Source: Escherichia phage RB3
Sequence record: KM606994
Reading direction: 5' to 3' (one strand)
DNA length: 64,000 nucleotides
This document shows positions 2,005-38,687 of the stretch, in pieces. The translations under genes and the position numbers were made by a program. Under the pieces are notes generated by a model that was given only the letters and a program-made list of their open reading frames with translations, had not been told where the DNA came from and did no database searches. Every line of letters starts with the position of its first letter. Positions within the stretch are counted from its first letter, which is position 1.

Positions 2005-3205
2005 ATTTTGTAATAATGTCAAACTGTTCTTTAAAGCAGAAGCTTGAATCTTGATGCTGATACAAAAATTCATATGCTTTTTCTCGCTCACGGTCATAAA
2101 GAGCTCGGTCAGATGACAGTTCTTTAATACGCTCGAATGTTGATTCCATGTCATTTTCATCAAACCAAATGATACCGCTATCATGCGAGGTCAAAGGAGT
2201 ATTATCAACACGGAATTTTAAATTATCACCCGTTGATTTCCAGAAAACAGGAATTGTACCGCAAGCACCTAATTCAAGATGAGTATATTCGAGTGAGCGT
2301 TGTAGATATTTTTTATCCAACTTACTCAACTGATAACCAAAACCGGATTTACTCATACGTTCAAGCATTTCGCTATTTACATAACGGTCAAGAATTTGCG
2401 TTGGCAAATTAGGAGCAATTTTAATTTGGTCTACTTGATGAAGACGATAATACTCGTATGGAATTCCTTTTTCTTTAATGGGAATGAACGCTGGAGAACG
2501 TTCCAGACCTTCCATAATAGTACTTAGTCCTGCAGGTTTAAGATGTTTTTCATGAAAATCAAACATCTGATAAAAACCTTTCCACGTAGTCGTACGACCA
2601 ATCCAACGGTTAATATTCATGTTAATTTCAGAAACATCTTTCCAGTAGGTTGACCGAACCTTCGCAATATCCATAGGAGGCTGAAAGTTATATACGGTCG
2701 GTGCTTCTTCAATATCATCAAACAGAGAAACTGTTTCAGGATACCATTCTTTCATCAGAACTTTATTAAAATCGCCATTATCAGAATGACTAAAAATAAC
2801 ATCAGCTCGACGAACAGTTTCTTCTAATCCCAAATTTCGACGCAAAGAAAGAGAAGAATGGTCATGTTGATAAACTACAACACGAACCGAAGGTTTAATG
2901 TTATCAATAATTTTTTTATAGTTATTAATTGTGTCTTCTTCGACTGAAGTAGCAGGAACTGAATTGATAATTAGAATATCACAATCATTTACCAGCTTAA
3001 GTGTTTTATCGTATTCTTTTGCCAATAAAACCGGAATTGAAAATGATTTATAATCATGCGCGCAGTTACGAGTAAATGATTTATCTTTAGCATAAACCAA
3101 AGTTACTTCATGACCATTTTTAATAAACCAATCACGCTGCTCAAGAGAAAATTTAGTTACACCGCAACCTTCAAGACCTCGAGCCATAAAAATACATACT
3201 TTCAT
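2003..3205 (-). CDS. a-gt: DNA alpha-glucosyltransferase
   Basis: 400 aa; near full-length match to my memory of T4 alpha-glucosyltransferase (MKVCIFMARGLEGCGVTKFSLEQRDWFIKNGHEVTLVYAKDK...). Confidence 0.9.
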   Translation of the reverse strand: MKVCIFMARGLEGCGVTKFSLEQRDWFIKNGHEVTLVYAKDKSFTRNCAHDYKSFSIPVLLAKEYDKTLKLVNDCDILIINSVPATSVEEDTINNYKKIIDNIKPSVRVVVYQHDHSSLSLRRNLGLEETVRRADVIFSHSDNGDFNKVLMKEWYPETVSLFDDIEEAPTVYNFQPPMDIAKVRSTYWKDVSEINMNINRWIGRTTTWKGFYQMFDFHEKHLKPAGLSTIMEGLERSPAFIPIKEKGIPYEYYRLHQVDQIKIAPNLPTQILDRYVNSEMLERMSKSGFGYQLSKLDKKYLQRSLEYTHLELGACGTIPVFWKSTGDNLKFRVDNTPLTSHDSGIIWFDENDMESTFERIKELSSDRALYDREREKAYEFLYQHQDSSFCFKEQFDIITK

Positions 3206-5263: not shown

Positions 5264-5590
5264 TTATACCTTAGTAATTTTCAGGTCTGCAAATTTTTTC
5301 TTGCGTTGATTTTTCATACGACGAATAGTTTTATCGGAAATTTCATGCTTTTGATAAGCTTTAGATTCTACACCAAAAGCTTTAACATCAAATTCTGACA
5401 AGATATATTGAACCAACAATTCACGGACAGTATTGCGTCCAATCTTCTGATCATTCTGTTTCATCGTCTGATGAAGCTCTTTTTCCCATTTATCCAAAAT
5501 TTGAGGAGTTACAATATCGCCTTTTTCTAGCAAAGAAACTACTTTATCATATGCGTAAGAATTAATGACGTTTTTAATTTGAATAGTCAT
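5264..5590 (-). CDS. Hypothetical protein
   Basis: 108-aa ORF with a basic C-terminus. Confidence 0.5.
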   Translation of the reverse strand: MTIQIKNVINSYAYDKVVSLLEKGDIVTPQILDKWEKELHQTMKQNDQKIGRNTVRELLVQYILSEFDVKAFGVESKAYQKHEISDKTIRRMKNQRKKKFADLKITKV

Positions 5591-26146: not shown

Positions 26147-26349
26147 GTCACCTTTAAGCAGTATTCTTCTACATGCTGTTTACGACCTTTCTTATCAATA
26201 AAGGTATATTCAACGAATGTTCCAATGTAGTCTTTATCTACATCATGTAGGCTATTAATTGGGCATTTAGTACGGCAAATGCGTTCCCATTGACGAATAA
26301 TTTCTGCTTTGTTTTTAGGATCAAACGGATGCGGGTAATGCACTTTCAT
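26137..26349 (-). CDS. Hypothetical small protein
   Basis: 70-aa ORF. Confidence 0.45.
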   Translation of the reverse strand: MKVHYPHPFDPKNKAEIIRQWERICRTKCPINSLHDVDKDYIGTFVEYTFIDKKGRKQHVEEYCLKVTWL

Positions 26350-26800
26350 AATCCACCACTATTAAATCAATATCAGGAGTAAACATGTCGATTAATTTAG
26401 AAACCTTATCCCAATCACCGCCAGCAATACCACAACCTATGCGTGGAATGTAAATTACTGGTTTAAACAAAAGGGTTTCTGCCTGTAGATTTAATTCTAT
26501 CATGCAGTTTACTAAAGCACCATAATCAAGATTAGGACCTGGTTCGTATTGCGTATACAAGTTATAACATATGCCAAAACCATTAGGTTTATGTTTAAAA
26601 ACAATAGACATATCACCGAGTTTTTCACGCGAACCATATTCAGTAGTAGTTTTATCTATTTCTAAAATTTTAGGATAGGCCCTTGCTAATTGACCCGCTA
26701 CACCTGAACCCATAGTATGAAAACAGTTACACCCGTGCGCAATAATATTACCTTCAAGAAAGAGGGCGACAATATCGCCCTTGATATATTTTACAATCAT
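26321..26800 (-). CDS. Macro-domain protein (ADP-ribose binding/hydrolase fold)
   Basis: 159 aa; KGDI...IIAHGCNCFHTMGSGVAGQLA and IPRIGCGIAGGDW resemble macrodomain motifs. Confidence 0.6.
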   Translation of the reverse strand: MIVKYIKGDIVALFLEGNIIAHGCNCFHTMGSGVAGQLARAYPKILEIDKTTTEYGSREKLGDMSIVFKHKPNGFGICYNLYTQYEPGPNLDYGALVNCMIELNLQAETLLFKPVIYIPRIGCGIAGGDWDKVSKLIDMFTPDIDLIVVDYESALPASV

Positions 26801-27144: not shown

Positions 27145-27682
27145 TTACTATTTCCAAAAGTTTATTATTTTTAAGATAATTAGCCTTTTCTAGGACTTCA
27201 GAAGCATATTTAGAACCAGCTTTAACATTCCATCCCGAATTATAAGAGGATATTGCTTTTCTTATATCTCCCTTGTGTATATTTAACCAATAAGAAAGTT
27301 CAATGTACGCCCAGGAAGCTGAATTGGATCGTTTATTCAACATTCTTTTTATTTCAGCATCGGTCATATTATAACCAAGTTCCTTAACTCTCGCTCGCAT
27401 AGTAGGCAAATAATTTTGGAACATTCCGTAGGCGTGATGCTTTGGTTTAGATTTTAAATTAACTCCGCCAGAGCTTTCTTGCCATAAAATAGCAGCCATT
27501 ATATGACCTAATCCGCTCTTGTGGATATTTTTGTGTGTTTTATATTTTCCATCCTTAGAAAATTGTTCCCCGAATTGATACGCGTAACGCATGTTATCGA
27601 GTTGGACATTACTGAAAGTATGCTCGGAGCTATGTGCCATCATTGAAATGGCCAATAGACCAGCGAGTAGTGCTTTTCTCAT
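27137..27682 (-). CDS. Lytic transglycosylase-like protein (SLT domain) with signal peptide
   Basis: 181 aa; signal peptide plus SLT-like ILWQESSGG and AYGMFQ motifs. Confidence 0.6.
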   Translation of the reverse strand: MRKALLAGLLAISMMAHSSEHTFSNVQLDNMRYAYQFGEQFSKDGKYKTHKNIHKSGLGHIMAAILWQESSGGVNLKSKPKHHAYGMFQNYLPTMRARVKELGYNMTDAEIKRMLNKRSNSASWAYIELSYWLNIHKGDIRKAISSYNSGWNVKAGSKYASEVLEKANYLKNNKLLEIVND

Positions 27683-28178: not shown

Positions 28179-28208
28179 ATTATACCACAGTCAAGAGGAA
28201 AAGTAAAC
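28179..28208 (-). promoter_or_regulatory. T4-type early promoter upstream of regB
   Basis: Minus strand GTTTAC-spacer-TGGTATAAT. Confidence 0.65.
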
Positions 28209-28210
28209 AG

Positions 28211-28489
28211 TTATTCTTTAAATCTGATCAATTTATTCATAGACTTTGAAACTTCTGCACGAACCTCATGTAGATTTTTGAGCTGTTCAAGACGCTGCGC
28301 ATAGTAAGCAATTTCATCTTCTTCGAGACAGTCCTGTGAATCTTCTTTAAGATAACGCGCATAGTCCTGGAAAGCATTACGAATTACTTCTTGGAAGTCA
28401 TCAAGACTTTGAATTTTCTTAGGAGCAGCAGATACACGACGAGGGGCAGTATAATACTCATAACCAAACCCTGCGCTTAATTGAGCCAT
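28211..28489 (-). CDS. Hypothetical small acidic protein
   Basis: Start at the internal Met ([13 protein letters not shown]...), coupled to the upstream stop. Confidence 0.45.
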
Positions 28490-28791
28490 TAGTATTTTTC
28501 CTCTGGTTGGAACACAGCACGGCAAGCCCACATACTGGCTTCTTTGAGTTTCGTTTTAGCAATAGTTAACTGATCGAGGCTTTCAGCATAATTCTTCGCG
28601 AGTTCATCATCTTCACAGCTATCGAATGCTTCCCAGAATTCATCGTATAAAGCATCAAAGATAAGTCCTAAACGAACTTCAGCGTCTTTGATAGCATTCA
28701 CTTTACCGATTTTCTCTTCAGTATGCGGCTTATAACCTTTAATGTCTTCAATCATATTTGACTTCCTCACCAGTACATAAATCATATTCAA
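28489..28791 (-). CDS. Hypothetical small acidic protein
   Basis: 100-aa ORF; start uncertain (three in-frame Met). Confidence 0.45.
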
Positions 28792-28969
28792 CTAAACGAA
28801 TAGGTTCATGAATGCCATATCCTTGAACAGAAATTTCTGTTGTAGGATAAATTCCATCAATATCACCCATATTCCAGGCTTCATTAAATTGCTGTTCGCC
28901 TGAATTACTAAACCACTCGGCGAAAGCATTTAGCACATCTTTAGAACCTTCAATAATTATCTTTGCCAT
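28748..28969 (-). CDS. Hypothetical small acidic protein
   Basis: 73-aa ORF coupled to the upstream gene. Confidence 0.45.
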   Translation of the reverse strand: MAKIIIEGSKDVLNAFAEWFSNSGEQQFNEAWNMGDIDGIYPTTEISVQGYGIHEPIRLVEYDLCTGEEVKYD

Positions 28970-29331
28970 TACAGACTCTCAGTAAAGGTACGAGCGATAA
29001 CGTCGCGCTGCTGTTCCGGAGTCAGAGAGTTAAAGCGAACTGCATAACCTGATACACGGATGGTCAGCTGCGGATATTTTTCCGGATGCTTAACTGCATC
29101 TTCCAGAGTTTCGCGACGCAGAACGTTAACGTTCAGGTGTTGACCACCTTCAATTTTAACTGTAGGTTGTGTTTCAATTTCAATTTCACGGGCATGCAAA
29201 CCGTAGAAAATTTCTGGGTCTACAAAAGAGTCCTCTTTAAAAGTTTTAGAGACAATAATTCGTGCTTGAATACCATCTTCAAAATAAATAGTACCTTTGT
29301 GTGTGCCTTCAAGAATTTGATATGCTTTCAT
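28969..29331 (-). CDS. Autonomous glycyl-radical cofactor (GrcA/YfiD-like)
   Basis: 120 aa; C-terminal ...[33 protein letters not shown] contains the RVSGY glycyl-radical motif. Confidence 0.8.
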
Positions 29332-29338
29332 ATAAACC

Positions 29339-29719
29339 TCAATTAGAAAATAAATTTATCCAAGATTGTTCTTTAATTAAAAACGGCTCAGAATCATATG
29401 CCATTAAACTCTGTGTGATTAGTCCTTTAAAAGGACCATCAATAAATTCCATGGTAAAATATGGAATTTTATTCATTAGCCGTGCATTAGGAGCAGTACA
29501 CAAAACTCTGCATCCTTTGAATACGCCTTTTTGTAATTTGTATTGCTTGGGATAAAATTCGCTCAAAATGTTATTATTTGCTAAAATTTCAAAATGATTC
29601 ACCAATTTATTTTTAATAGTTTTTGGCGAAAAATAAAGATATTCGAAAAGCTGAGTGTCTGTCATCATTGCATTCCGATTACGAAAAACTGTGGACGAGT
29701 AATACCACCAATACAACAT
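29339..29719 (-). CDS. Hypothetical protein, possibly the C-terminal half of a split P-loop gene
   Basis: 126-aa ORF overlapping the P-loop ORF by 55 nt in another frame. Confidence 0.35.
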
Positions 29720-30207
29720 TTAATATTACAGCAGCAGTGTACAGTGTCAATATGGACACTATAAATCTTATCCATATCAGGAGATTTGACAGGCTCATCA
29801 ATTATATACAAAATTCGCGAAAGCGATAAACCTCTGAACTTGCTTCCTTTATTACCTATAAAACTGCGCACAGAATCAGTAAATAAACGAAAACGTATAT
29901 CATCATTAGAATAACGCGAAAATTCCTTTTTAATGTTATTTGCAGAAATTTTAGCGTAAGCTGAAGTATTAGAAAGAACAATAACTGTTCCGCCATCATA
30001 CAGCCAATTAGCGGCAAAGTTAGTCACAGCAATTGATTTACCGGATTGACGTCCACCATCTATACGAAGTGTGCAGTACTCTTTAAATAAATGTAATGAA
30101 TAAGGTACATGAAATCCACTATTACAAATTTCTTCTACTCTAGCATCAGAATGGTGTGTAAAAGCATTCATCAGGGATAGATAAGGACCAGTTAAAAATG
30201 TTCTCAT
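29665..30207 (-). CDS. P-loop NTPase-like protein (possibly truncated or frameshifted)
   Basis: 180 aa; Walker A GGRQSGKS, Walker B-like LYIIDEP; the last ~20 residues are low-complexity and Cys-rich. Confidence 0.5.
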   Translation of the reverse strand: MRTFLTGPYLSLMNAFTHHSDARVEEICNSGFHVPYSLHLFKEYCTLRIDGGRQSGKSIAVTNFAANWLYDGGTVIVLSNTSAYAKISANNIKKEFSRYSNDDIRFRLFTDSVRSFIGNKGSKFRGLSLSRILYIIDEPVKSPDMDKIYSVHIDTVHCCCNIKCCIGGITRPQFFVIGMQ

Positions 30208-30349
30208 TTTATTCTCTCTAGGTTTGGGCCATTCCGGTGGCGCATGAATTGTCCATTTCTGTATTTACCCATTACCGCACTTGGGCTCGACCTTATTACA
30301 GGTTGGCGGGAATCCCTCATAGAATCATGAGGTCCAGGTTGTTCCCATA

Positions 30350-30823
30350 TTATTTGAACGATTTAACGTACTGAATAGAACCTTTACTATTCACGAAAGC
30401 GATTTTACCATTTTTATTATACATGGTAGCAGTACGCTGATAGCCATAAGTTTGCTTACCAGATTGATAACCAACTAATGCAAAATTATCTTCACCCATT
30501 TTATTCTGTTTAGCGCGAATGCGTTCATGACCATGCGCCATAAGAACCTTAGCATCACCAGTTGCAATGGATCGACGAGTTTTTTCATCTTCAACTGTAT
30601 TAACAAAGTCGTCAAATGAATCAAATTTAGCATGAGATTTATTATACAGTTTTCCATCTACTGCATAATTATATCCCTGTACATCCATCTCAACTTCTGT
30701 ACCATCATCCAGTACAGCAGTGATTTTCTGTCCTTTTTTAAATTTCAAAAGATCAGTAAAAGATTCAGCAATAATTTGAGAATTAATAGCTGCTTCAGTA
30801 ATAAATTCTTGATATGTTTTCAT
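30350..30823 (-). CDS. Internal protein (IPIII-like) with capsid-targeting N-terminus
   Basis: 157 aa; N-terminal MKTYQEFITE, the T4 internal-protein targeting/cleavage signature. Confidence 0.6.
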   Translation of the reverse strand: MKTYQEFITEAAINSQIIAESFTDLLKFKKGQKITAVLDDGTEVEMDVQGYNYAVDGKLYNKSHAKFDSFDDFVNTVEDEKTRRSIATGDAKVLMAHGHERIRAKQNKMGEDNFALVGYQSGKQTYGYQRTATMYNKNGKIAFVNSKGSIQYVKSFK

Positions 30824-35423: not shown

Positions 35424-35499
35424 TGGTCGAGGCAGTAGGGATCGAACCTACGACCCAGGACTTAGAAGGTCCTTGCTCTTCCTTCTGAGCTATGCCTCG
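35424..35499 (-). tRNA. tRNA-Arg (anticodon UCU)
   Basis: Hand-folded cloverleaf; anticodon loop CUUCUAA; CCA encoded. Confidence 0.8.
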
Positions 35500-35503
35500 T
35501 ATT

Positions 35504-35578
35504 TGGCGGACGTGATAGGATTCGAACCTATAACCAATCGCTTAACAGGCGATCGCTCTGCCATTGAGCTACACATCC
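35504..35578 (-). tRNA. tRNA-Asn (anticodon GUU)
   Basis: Hand-folded cloverleaf; anticodon loop CUGUUAA; CCA encoded. Confidence 0.7.
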
Positions 35579-35582
35579 AAAT

Positions 35583-35669
35583 TGGTGGGGAGTGATGGAG
35601 TCGAACCACCCGAGTCGCAATGACAATGGATTTACAGTCCACACCGCTACCTCTACGGGATAACTCCCC
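35583..35669 (-). tRNA. tRNA-Tyr (anticodon GUA), long variable arm
   Basis: 87 nt; anticodon loop CUGUAAA; T-arm GGTGG-TTCGACT-CCATC; CCA encoded. Confidence 0.65.
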
Positions 35670-35678
35670 TAATTAATT

Positions 35679-35753
35679 TGGTGGCCCTGGGTGGAATTGA
35701 ACCACCATCTGGCGATTATGAGTCGCTTGCTTGAACCTTCCAGCTACAGGGCC
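35679..35753 (-). tRNA. tRNA with CAU anticodon (Met or Ile2)
   Basis: Anticodon loop CUCAUAA; acceptor GGCCCTG/CAGGGCC; CCA encoded. Confidence 0.65.
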
Positions 35754-35754
35754 T

Positions 35755-35830
35755 TGGCGCTGATTGACGGAATCGAACCGCCGACATCCTCATTACAAGT
35801 GAGGTGCTCTACCTACTGAGCTAAATCAGC
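35755..35830 (-). tRNA. tRNA-Thr (anticodon UGU)
   Basis: Anticodon loop CUUGUAA; CCA encoded. Confidence 0.8.
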
Positions 35831-35835
35831 AAAAC

Positions 35836-35925
35836 TGGCGGAGGCGATAGGATTTGAACCTATGAGTCGCCGGAGCGACTGCCGGTTTTCAAGACCGGTG
35901 CATTAAACCACTCTGCCACGCCTCC
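35836..35925 (-). tRNA. tRNA-Ser (anticodon UGA), long variable arm
   Basis: 90 nt; anticodon loop CUUGAAA; CCA encoded. Confidence 0.8.
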
Positions 35926-35927
35926 AG

Positions 35928-36001
35928 TCTCCATACAAGGATTTGAACCTTGGACCTCCTGATCCCAAATCAGGCGCTCTACCAAACTGAGCTACACGGA
36001 G
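35928..36001 (-). tRNA. tRNA-Pro (anticodon UGG)
   Basis: Anticodon loop UUUGGGA; CCA not encoded. Confidence 0.75.
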
Positions 36002-36011
36002 TAAATTAAAT

Positions 36012-36085
<74 letters not shown>

Positions 36086-36090
36086 AAATT

Positions 36091-36177
36091 TGGTGCGAGA
36101 AGTGGGACTCGAACCCACAAGGAAATCATTCCGCAGCATTTTAAGTGCTGTGCCTTTACCAATTTGACCATTCTCGC
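36091..36177 (-). tRNA. tRNA-Leu (anticodon UAA), long variable arm
   Basis: 87 nt; anticodon loop CUUAAAA; CCA encoded. Confidence 0.8.
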
Positions 36178-36179
36178 GC

Positions 36180-36251
36180 TGGGAATAAAGGACTCGAACC
36201 TTTGCATCCTGGAATCAAAATCCAGTGCCTTACCAACTTGGCTAATTCCCA
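36180..36251 (-). tRNA. tRNA-Gln (anticodon UUG)
   Basis: Anticodon loop UUUUGAU; CCA not encoded. Confidence 0.75.

Positions 36252-38002: not shown

Positions 38003-38687
<685 letters not shown>

Follow-up and report, generated by a model that had tools for sequence, protein, structure and literature searches.

A T4-type vs.3-vs.4-vs.5 block, encoding an Acb2 sponge, a TadIV-1 sponge and a co-translated small protein, Vs.5, is very probably present in the 64,000-nucleotide stretch of Escherichia phage RB3 DNA analysed here (sequence record KM606994; hereafter the window). This reading is built on gene identity, conserved residues, fold and gene organisation, each of which was established for the window itself. 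The biology concerned is already known, the orthologues being 95-100% identical to characterised T4 proteins. An earlier sequence-only reading of the same DNA had proposed three small, acidic, early proteins, one of which might be an Acb2-type sponge. What goes beyond it is that vs.3 is itself a characterised sponge, that the coding sequences start at internal ATGs, and that the T4-type Acb2 is dinucleotide-specific.

Organisation and expression of the block

The segment between positions 27600 and 29600 of the window was 100% identical to the DNA of the T4-like phages RB5, RB6, RB7, RB9 and RB10, and ~98% identical to that of many Tequatrovirus genomes. According to the RB14 and T4 annotations, the minus-strand genes found here are tk.4, vs, vs.1, regB and vs.3 to vs.8. 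The order regB, vs.3, vs.4, vs.5, vs.6 matched that of both phages exactly, so that the locus does occupy the position of T4 vs.3-vs.5, as had been proposed (Table 1).

Table 1. Positions and properties of the block, its neighbours and the distant acb1 gene in the window
Feature	Position	Strand	Properties
vs.3 = tadIV-1, long form	28211-28489	-	92 aa, ATG start, pI 5.47, net charge -2
vs.4 = acb2, helical hairpin	28489-28755	-	88 aa, ATG start, pI 4.58, net charge -8
vs.5, conserved Straboviridae protein	28748-28969	-	73 aa, pI 4.14, net charge -10
vs.6, GrcA-like glycyl-radical cofactor	28969-29331	-	120 aa; Pfam Gly_radical, 67 bits
T4-early-type promoter TTTACT-17-TGGTATAAT	28179-28207	-	vs.3-regB spacer; consensus scan, 10/12 matches, extended -10
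57B = acb1, 2H-type phosphodiesterase	38003-38461	-	152 aa; 152/152 identical to T4 57B

Three translationally coupled small ORFs had been reported between 28211 and 28969, and three consecutive minus-strand genes with overlapping junctions were indeed found there. The stop codon of vs.6 overlaps the start codon of vs.5 (TAATG), vs.5 and vs.4 overlap by 8 nt (ATGATTGA), and vs.4 and vs.3 overlap again through TAATG, with GAGG Shine-Dalgarno motifs located 5′ of both vs.4 and vs.3. Comparable junction overlaps were observed in the distant Enterobacter phage CIP9. Such overlapping junctions make "translationally coupled" a fair description of vs.5-vs.4-vs.3, and vs.5 would be co-translated from the same message as vs.4 and vs.3.

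The maximal ORFs reach further upstream than the genes probably do. The maximal ORF of vs.3 has a GTG start and ends at 28531 (106 aa), its likely coding sequence being shorter, and that of vs.4 has a TTG start at 28791 (100 aa). Internal ATGs are most likely the true starts. For vs.4, the ATG at 28755 is preferred because the annotations, the way residues are numbered in the T4 Vs.4 crystal structure and the upstream GAGG all agree on it. The boundaries adopted for vs.3, vs.4 and vs.5 also agree with those annotated in RB14 and in re-sequenced T4. The size range of ~70-100 aa given earlier holds for the three products (73, 88 and 92 aa), but the 100-aa vs.4 frame quoted with it, ending at 28791, likely overstates the gene.

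Full-length protein matches were found in 657 phage records for vs.3, in 1236 for vs.4 and in 987 for vs.5, and dN/dS relative to T4T was 0.10, 0.07 and 0.05, respectively. The three frames are real genes under purifying selection and not chance ORFs. Their products had all been called acidic, which suits those of vs.4 and vs.5, that of vs.3 being merely mildly so (Table 1).

The vs.3-vs.8 block lies on the strand that T4 uses for prereplicative transcription, and vs.3-vs.4-vs.5 would form a segment of the T4-type prereplicative transcription unit of an RB5/6/7/9/10-type phage. The promoter found in the vs.3-regB spacer, of the strong early type, serves regB and delimits the coupled block on its 3′ side. 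A consensus scan revealed no convincing promoter immediately 5′ of the block. Its best sigma-70-like matches were located at 29750-29722, inside vs.8, and at 31021-30993, and such sites were no commoner in the region than in shuffled sequence. A search of 28200-30400 for the MotA box of middle promoters found none, and the GC-rich spacer at 30208-30349 presented neither an excess of RNA structure (z = 0.03) nor an Rfam match. Chen et al. expressed these genes from "the promoter of vs.8" (PMC13243611).

Since no clear promoter precedes the block, the timing of its expression rests on T4 data. In a T4 omics study, the RNAs of vs.3, vs.4, vs.5 and vs.6 were assigned to the early class and the Vs.3, Vs.4 and Vs.6 proteins to the "middle" class, Vs.5 having no protein class (PMC9697503 supplement). 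The label "early" given to these genes agrees with the class of the T4 transcripts, and for the present phage it draws its support from analogy with T4 and not from the present sequence alone.

Inhibitors of nucleotide immune signalling

It was proposed from synteny that the ORF at 28489-28791 was the Acb2 candidate, to be checked by alignment and structure prediction, and both checks came out in its favour. The vs.4 protein was identical to T4 Vs.4 (PDB 7UQ2) in 84/88 residues (phmmer E = 1.7e-53), matched the Pfam family PF24729 (Acb2_Tad1_hairpin) with 71.2 bits (cut-off 27), and matched phrog_717 (E 6e-32), the PHROG through which Jenson et al. defined Vs.4 homologues. The Acb2 of phage PaMx33 (8H2J, 8IXZ) gave a weak sequence match. 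A single-sequence AF2 model (pLDDT 87) predicted a hairpin of two helices, 10-45 and 50-81, whose top Foldseek matches in the PDB were 7UQ2 (TM 0.74) and PaMx33 Acb2 (8H2J/8H2X, TM ~0.70), the only confident fold matches obtained. It is thus confirmed that vs.4 encodes the Vs.4/Acb2 orthologue, which shares with T4 Vs.4/Acb2 (7UQ2; Jenson et al. 2023, Huiting et al. 2023) the locus, the length of 88 aa, the predicted fold and 95% of its residues.

The T4 protein has been characterised in detail. Jenson et al. (2023, PMC10097602) found T4 Vs.4 to be hexameric and to take up three cGAMP molecules (Kd ~30 nM), the bases being stacked by Y8 and F82 and polar contacts being made by H11, K23 and R79. 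S74 and T12 were also functionally important, and L29, F33, A66, A73 and A77 were placed at the hexamer interface. In the window protein Y8, H11, T12, K23, L29, F33, L60, A66, A73, S74, A77, R79 and F82 are all kept, so that every ligand-contact and hexamer-interface residue is shared with T4. In an alignment of the window, T4 and RB14 proteins, the cGAMP-pocket residues (Y8, F82, H11, K23, S74, R79) and those of the interface (L29, F33, A66, A73, A77) were invariant. By its near-identity to T4 Vs.4, the two-helix hairpin protein is expected to form hexamers in which three pockets lie at the dimer interfaces. In each pocket one 3′,3′-cGAMP or other cyclic dinucleotide would be clamped by Y8 and F82 and contacted by H11, K23, S74 and R79, and this binding would withhold the signal from CBASS effectors.

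The ligand range of Acb2 proteins is known to vary. Cao et al. (PMC10312549) demonstrated that T4-Acb2 binds cyclic dinucleotides (CDNs), with published Kd values of about 30-84 nM (PMC10097602, PMC10312549), and not cA3 or cAAG. The exclusion of cA3 was attributed to an unkinked helix together with Y37, A57, L60, D61 and T64, and a D61R mutant still failed to bind cA3 (PMC10312549). PaMx33 Acb2 has the same Pfam family and fold as the window protein, and its Y11 and K26 correspond to the conserved Y8 and K23, but the two are just ~21-24% identical. Moreover, PaMx33 Acb2 possesses a second pocket that binds cA3 and cAAG with nanomolar affinity, whereas T4-type Acb2 has no pocket fit for trinucleotides (PMC10312549). 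In the broad-spectrum subtype (PaMx33/JBD67 type), a cyclic-trinucleotide pocket goes with equivalents of R67 and T74 and with a kinked helix that opens it to cA3. The window protein does not belong to this subtype, as D61 replaces R67 and Y37, A57, L60, D61, T64 and also T68 are identical to those of T4. Given these T4-type residues, a dinucleotide-only sponge is expected, and this Acb2 should bind cyclic dinucleotides and not cA3 or other cyclic trinucleotides.

The window protein differs from T4 Vs.4 by L44F, N46S, C50D and F52L, and in the AF2 model these positions form the predicted hairpin tip, in or beside the 46-49 loop. Clustered in this way, the substitutions could in principle shift stability or affinity. 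It may be asked whether the allele is an altered or weakened Acb2, in which changes at the tip modify oligomer stability or ligand range, for example to evade the Panoptes decoy system. This system is triggered by T4 Acb2 through the sequestration of 2′,3′-c-di-AMP, an effect lost in the Y8A and F82C mutants (PMC12657218). The same study argued that phages are pressed to retune or lose Acb2 and noted that T2 has a probable binding-site mutation (PMC12657218), and the confinement of all 4/88 differences to residues 44-52 would suit such retuning. However, none of the substitutions hits a published ligand-contact or hexamer-interface residue, and the model places them in the inter-helix loop, far from the N- and C-terminal residues of the CDN pocket. 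The allele is also shared by RB14, at least 62 phage records are ≥99% identical, and the low dN/dS of vs.4 relative to T4T (0.07) points in the same direction. An altered Acb2 is accordingly regarded as very unlikely, and a T4-like Acb2 is retained as the preferred reading. Such a sponge would also come at a cost, since sequestration of CDNs would set off Panoptes.

The second anti-CBASS activity that the sequence-only reading expected from Acb1 was also borne out, with no differences between the window copy of 57B and that of T4. The 57B protein matched the Acb1 structure PDB 7T26, which is that of a homologue, with E 4e-62. It is encoded 9 kb from vs.4 and works by enzymatic cleavage, in contrast to the sequestration exerted by Acb2. 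Acb1 degrades cyclic di- and trinucleotides, and its combination with Acb2 would therefore broaden the coverage of CBASS signals. It is thus correct that the phage has two anti-CBASS genes, acb1 and acb2.

The third inhibitor was not foreseen by the sequence-only reading. The vs.3 protein was identical to T4 Vs.3 in 89/92 residues (97%), with the differences V21A, V36I and T64A, and over its full length matched UPEC07 TadIV-1 (PDB 9WIW, E 1e-37). T4 Vs.3 was identified as TadIV-1 by Chen et al. (Nat Commun 2026, PMC13243611), the study from which 9WIW originates. The authors described a dimeric two-helix sponge for N7-cADPR (KD ~216 nM) that prevents the caspase-like effector of type IV Thoeris from acting. 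Its activity requires a flexible N-terminal loop, and N7-cADPR binding depends on the T4 residues R17, R18 and K24 (PMC13243611). All the long homologues tested (~90 aa; >80 aa) were active, and the short ones (~70 aa) inactive (PMC13243611). The label "Endoribonuclease" carried by the 9WIW entry is an inherited mis-annotation.

With 92 aa and an N-terminal loop, vs.3 is the long form (>80 aa) of TadIV-1. It shares with T4 Vs.3/TadIV-1 the position next to regB, the long form, R17, R18 and K24, and the whole of residues 1-20. UPEC07 TadIV-1 differs from both by a 9-residue insertion in the N-terminal loop. Considering its length, its 89/92 identity and the retention of R17, R18 and K24, the vs.3 product should be an active TadIV-1, whose N-terminal loop (R17, R18, K24) would sequester N7-cADPR and so block the caspase-like effector of type IV Thoeris. 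The V21A substitution, placed in this loop, could in principle shift stability or affinity. For Vs.4 and Vs.3 alike, ligand binding and anti-defence activity would follow from published work on T4 proteins that are 95-97% identical to them.

The vs.5 product and the T4 reference sequence

The third gene of the block belongs to a family confined to Straboviridae of enterobacteria, where it is found in several genera with identities down to ~41%. Its protein matched phrog_1986 over the full length, a PHROG of the unknown-function class, and found no match in Pfam, NCBIfam or PADLOC. A sequence search of the PDB returned a single weak partial match, to SurE (E 0.008). The AF2 model, built from a 10-sequence alignment (pLDDT 80.7), presented a helix at 10-33 and strands at 44-49 and 58-63. 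Foldseek found no neighbour of this fold in the PDB (best E 1.9), and in BFVD it recovered uncharacterised proteins of T4-like phages alone. In all these searches Vs.5 showed no likeness in sequence or fold to Acb2, Tad1, Tad2, TadIV-1 or any other characterised protein. An exhaustive profile-free HMMER search of 1.84 billion representatives gave 6 matches, 5 of which were phage homologues. An 895-aa repeat protein (P0007), with 7 matches through the repeated "AWFENNGSQSFTE", was judged a motif coincidence and rejected as a Vs.5 homologue because of its partial query coverage and compositionally biased repeat.

The conserved residues of the family are W19, F20, S21, N22, S23, G24, E25, Q26, E30, G50, Y51, E55, P56, I57, V60, E61, Y62, T66 and E68, all of them aromatic, acidic or small, and two motifs of the family, WFSNSGEQ and GYG..EPI..VEY, are invariant. 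The family alignment contains no conserved Lys or Arg. The lack of a conserved basic residue, together with the strong acidity of the protein, disfavours a phosphate-binding sponge pocket, and judging from the sequence Vs.5 is probably not a nucleotide sponge. The role of an acidic protein-binding inhibitor or of a nucleic-acid mimic would fit it better.

The T4 reference describes a different protein. Its Vs.5 has 58 aa and departs from the window protein after residue 17, one C being missing from the reference DNA relative to the window. This deletion was found only in X04567, AF158101 and NC_000866, the extra base being present in all T4 records that were re-sequenced independently. In T4T and MT984581, vs.5 is annotated as a 222-nt gene that shares 8 nt with vs.4, exactly as it does in the window, and T4T Vs.5 is identical to the window protein in 72/73 residues. 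From the restriction of the deletion to those three records and the agreement of T4T and MT984581, the 58-aa Vs.5 is probably a one-base error of the old sequence. The same error may account for the missing Vs.5 protein class in the T4 omics study.

The neighbourhood of vs.5 varies among related phages. In CIP9 the order is vs.5, vs.4, a short vs.3 and regB. In Salmonella phage STML-198, vs.5 is followed by a frameshifted vs.4. In Klebsiella phage KEN22 the vs.5 domain forms part of a 163-aa fusion with an unrelated C-terminal domain, after which come vs.6, vs.4 and regB, with vs.3 absent from this neighbourhood. The C-terminal half of the fusion matched only phrog_17468, of unknown function, and had neither a Pfam match nor a counterpart in the window. 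A fusion between Vs.5 and Acb2 in KEN22 was considered and rejected, Acb2 being a separate gene further downstream. These variable neighbours indicate that vs.5 is kept independently of the adjoining genes.

It is tempting to regard the intact 73-aa Vs.5 as a third, so far undescribed counter-defence factor of T-even phages, a sponge or an acidic protein-binding inhibitor co-translated with Acb2 in an anti-signalling cassette. Its gene is translationally coupled to acb2 and adjoins two proven sponges, it is small and early transcribed, and it is full-length in 985 records across several Straboviridae genera. It is also under purifying selection (dN/dS 0.05) and persists in phages that have a short vs.3, no vs.3 or a frameshifted vs.4, and because of the mis-annotated T4 reference, screens and proteomics based on T4 may have missed it. 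Nevertheless, neither homology nor fold relates Vs.5 to a known anti-defence protein, and no conserved Lys or Arg is available to hold phosphates. When Chen et al. tested T4 Vs.3 to Vs.8 singly, Vs.3 alone inhibited type IV Thoeris (PMC13243611). In addition, small T4 early genes mostly serve host takeover or have no known function, and the order of vs.5 relative to vs.4 is not fixed, vs.6 intervening between them in KEN22. A counter-defence role is for these reasons held to be possible but doubtful.

Vs.5 is rather probably an ordinary non-essential early protein, that is, a host-takeover or metabolic accessory possibly tied to the GrcA-like vs.6, whose adjacency to acb2 would be historical. 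The overlap of vs.5 with the vs.6 stop codon is as tight as that with vs.4, the KEN22 vs.5 domain is fused to an unrelated domain with vs.6 next to it, and the early regions of T4 are patchworks of small genes unrelated to one another. Nothing speaks directly against such a protein, the sole opposing hints being its proximity and coupling to two sponges. Whichever role it has, UniProt and the T4 reference carry a frameshifted Vs.5, so that proteomic searches and cloning designs based on them would use the wrong sequence, and the 73-aa protein should replace the 58-aa T4 reference entry ahead of any screening.

The inhibitor set and its meaning for T4-type phages

GenBank labels the acb2, tadIV-1 and acb1 orthologues of RB5-type phages just "hypothetical protein". 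Transferring the published functions of Acb2, TadIV-1 and Acb1 to these genes improves their annotation, and the analysis further adds the correct gene boundaries, the recognition of vs.3 as a published sponge, and the flagging of vs.5 and of its faulty T4 reference. A functional sponge gene is, however, no guarantee of phage resistance, since T2, despite its active TadIV-1, remains susceptible to type IV Thoeris, possibly owing to low expression (PMC13243611). In turn, acb2 would be at once an asset, against CBASS, and a liability, towards Panoptes. Overall, no fewer than three inhibitors of nucleotide immune signalling are encoded by the phage, two of them in adjacent, overlapping genes, and this set predicts its host range on hosts equipped with CBASS, type IV Thoeris or Panoptes.

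The reading frame of vs.5 in the T4 reference

The Vs.5 protein of the T4 reference is 58 aa long (UniProt P13315), and comparison of the T4 stretch (NC_000866) with the window revealed that a single C was absent after codon 17 of the reference gene, resulting in this shorter product. The deletion was confined to X04567, AF158101 and NC_000866, and all re-sequenced T4 genomes encoded a 73-aa Vs.5 overlapping vs.4, the same as in the window. The 58-aa Vs.5 most likely stems from a mistake in the original sequencing, which may also account for the missing Vs.5 protein class in T4 proteomics.

Coordinates of the features considered in the window and in related phages
Feature	Source	Coordinates	Strand	Description
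Tk.4	Window	26321-26800	-	159 aa; phrog_335 'phosphatase'
vs.5	Window	28748-28969	-	73 aa
Spacer between Ip4 (30350-30823) and vs.8	Window	30208-30349	-	142 nt, unusually GC-rich
Cluster of ten tRNA genes	Window	35427-36251	-	
vs.5, reference form	T4 NC_000866 (L002)	5382-5558		58 aa
vs.5 fusion gene	Klebsiella phage vB_Kpn11382-KEN22 (L004)	2501-2992		163 aa; phrog_17468
acb2	Salmonella phage STML-198 (L005)	2724-3001		

Relatives of Vs.5

In Jiaodavirus phages, the vs.5 domain was found joined to a C-terminal domain of ~85 aa and of unknown function (phrog_17468), whose counterpart is absent from the window. The gene order in these phages is vs.5-fusion, vs.6, acb2 and regB, without vs.3. 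The Vs.5 core motif WFSNSGEQQFNE was also matched (E = 2e-12) by P0007, an 895-aa metagenomic repeat protein presenting seven 'DDIAWFENNGSQSFTERTI' units; this candidate was rejected as a Vs.5 homologue, the match being judged a motif convergence within a compositionally biased repeat.

Annotation of the sponge genes

Residues 1-23 and 22-88 of the STML-198 acb2 matched in separate frames, and two tiny ORFs are annotated at this site in the phage record. The gene appears to be frameshifted, through genuine pseudogenization or through an error in the sequencing. For TadIV-1, the molecule name deposited with the structure (PDB 9WIW) is 'Endoribonuclease', a label also given to genes around regB in some phage records, such as KP869105; it is a mis-annotation that spread from the adjacent regB gene.

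Flanking gene content and Tk.4

The cluster in the window comprised ten tRNA genes; the T4 stretch examined carried seven tRNAs adjoining segB. In T4, denV, ipII and ipIII occupy the locus where Ip4 is found in the window phage. In the Ip4-vs.8 spacer, RNA structure was not in excess (z = 0.03), the Rfam search returned no match, and no clear promoter was found. Downstream of the sponge genes, at a distance of ~1.4 kb, lies Tk.4, to which the T4 annotation ascribed an A1pp (macro-domain) phosphatase motif. ADP-ribose-derived immune signals could, in principle, be a target of a macro-domain protein.
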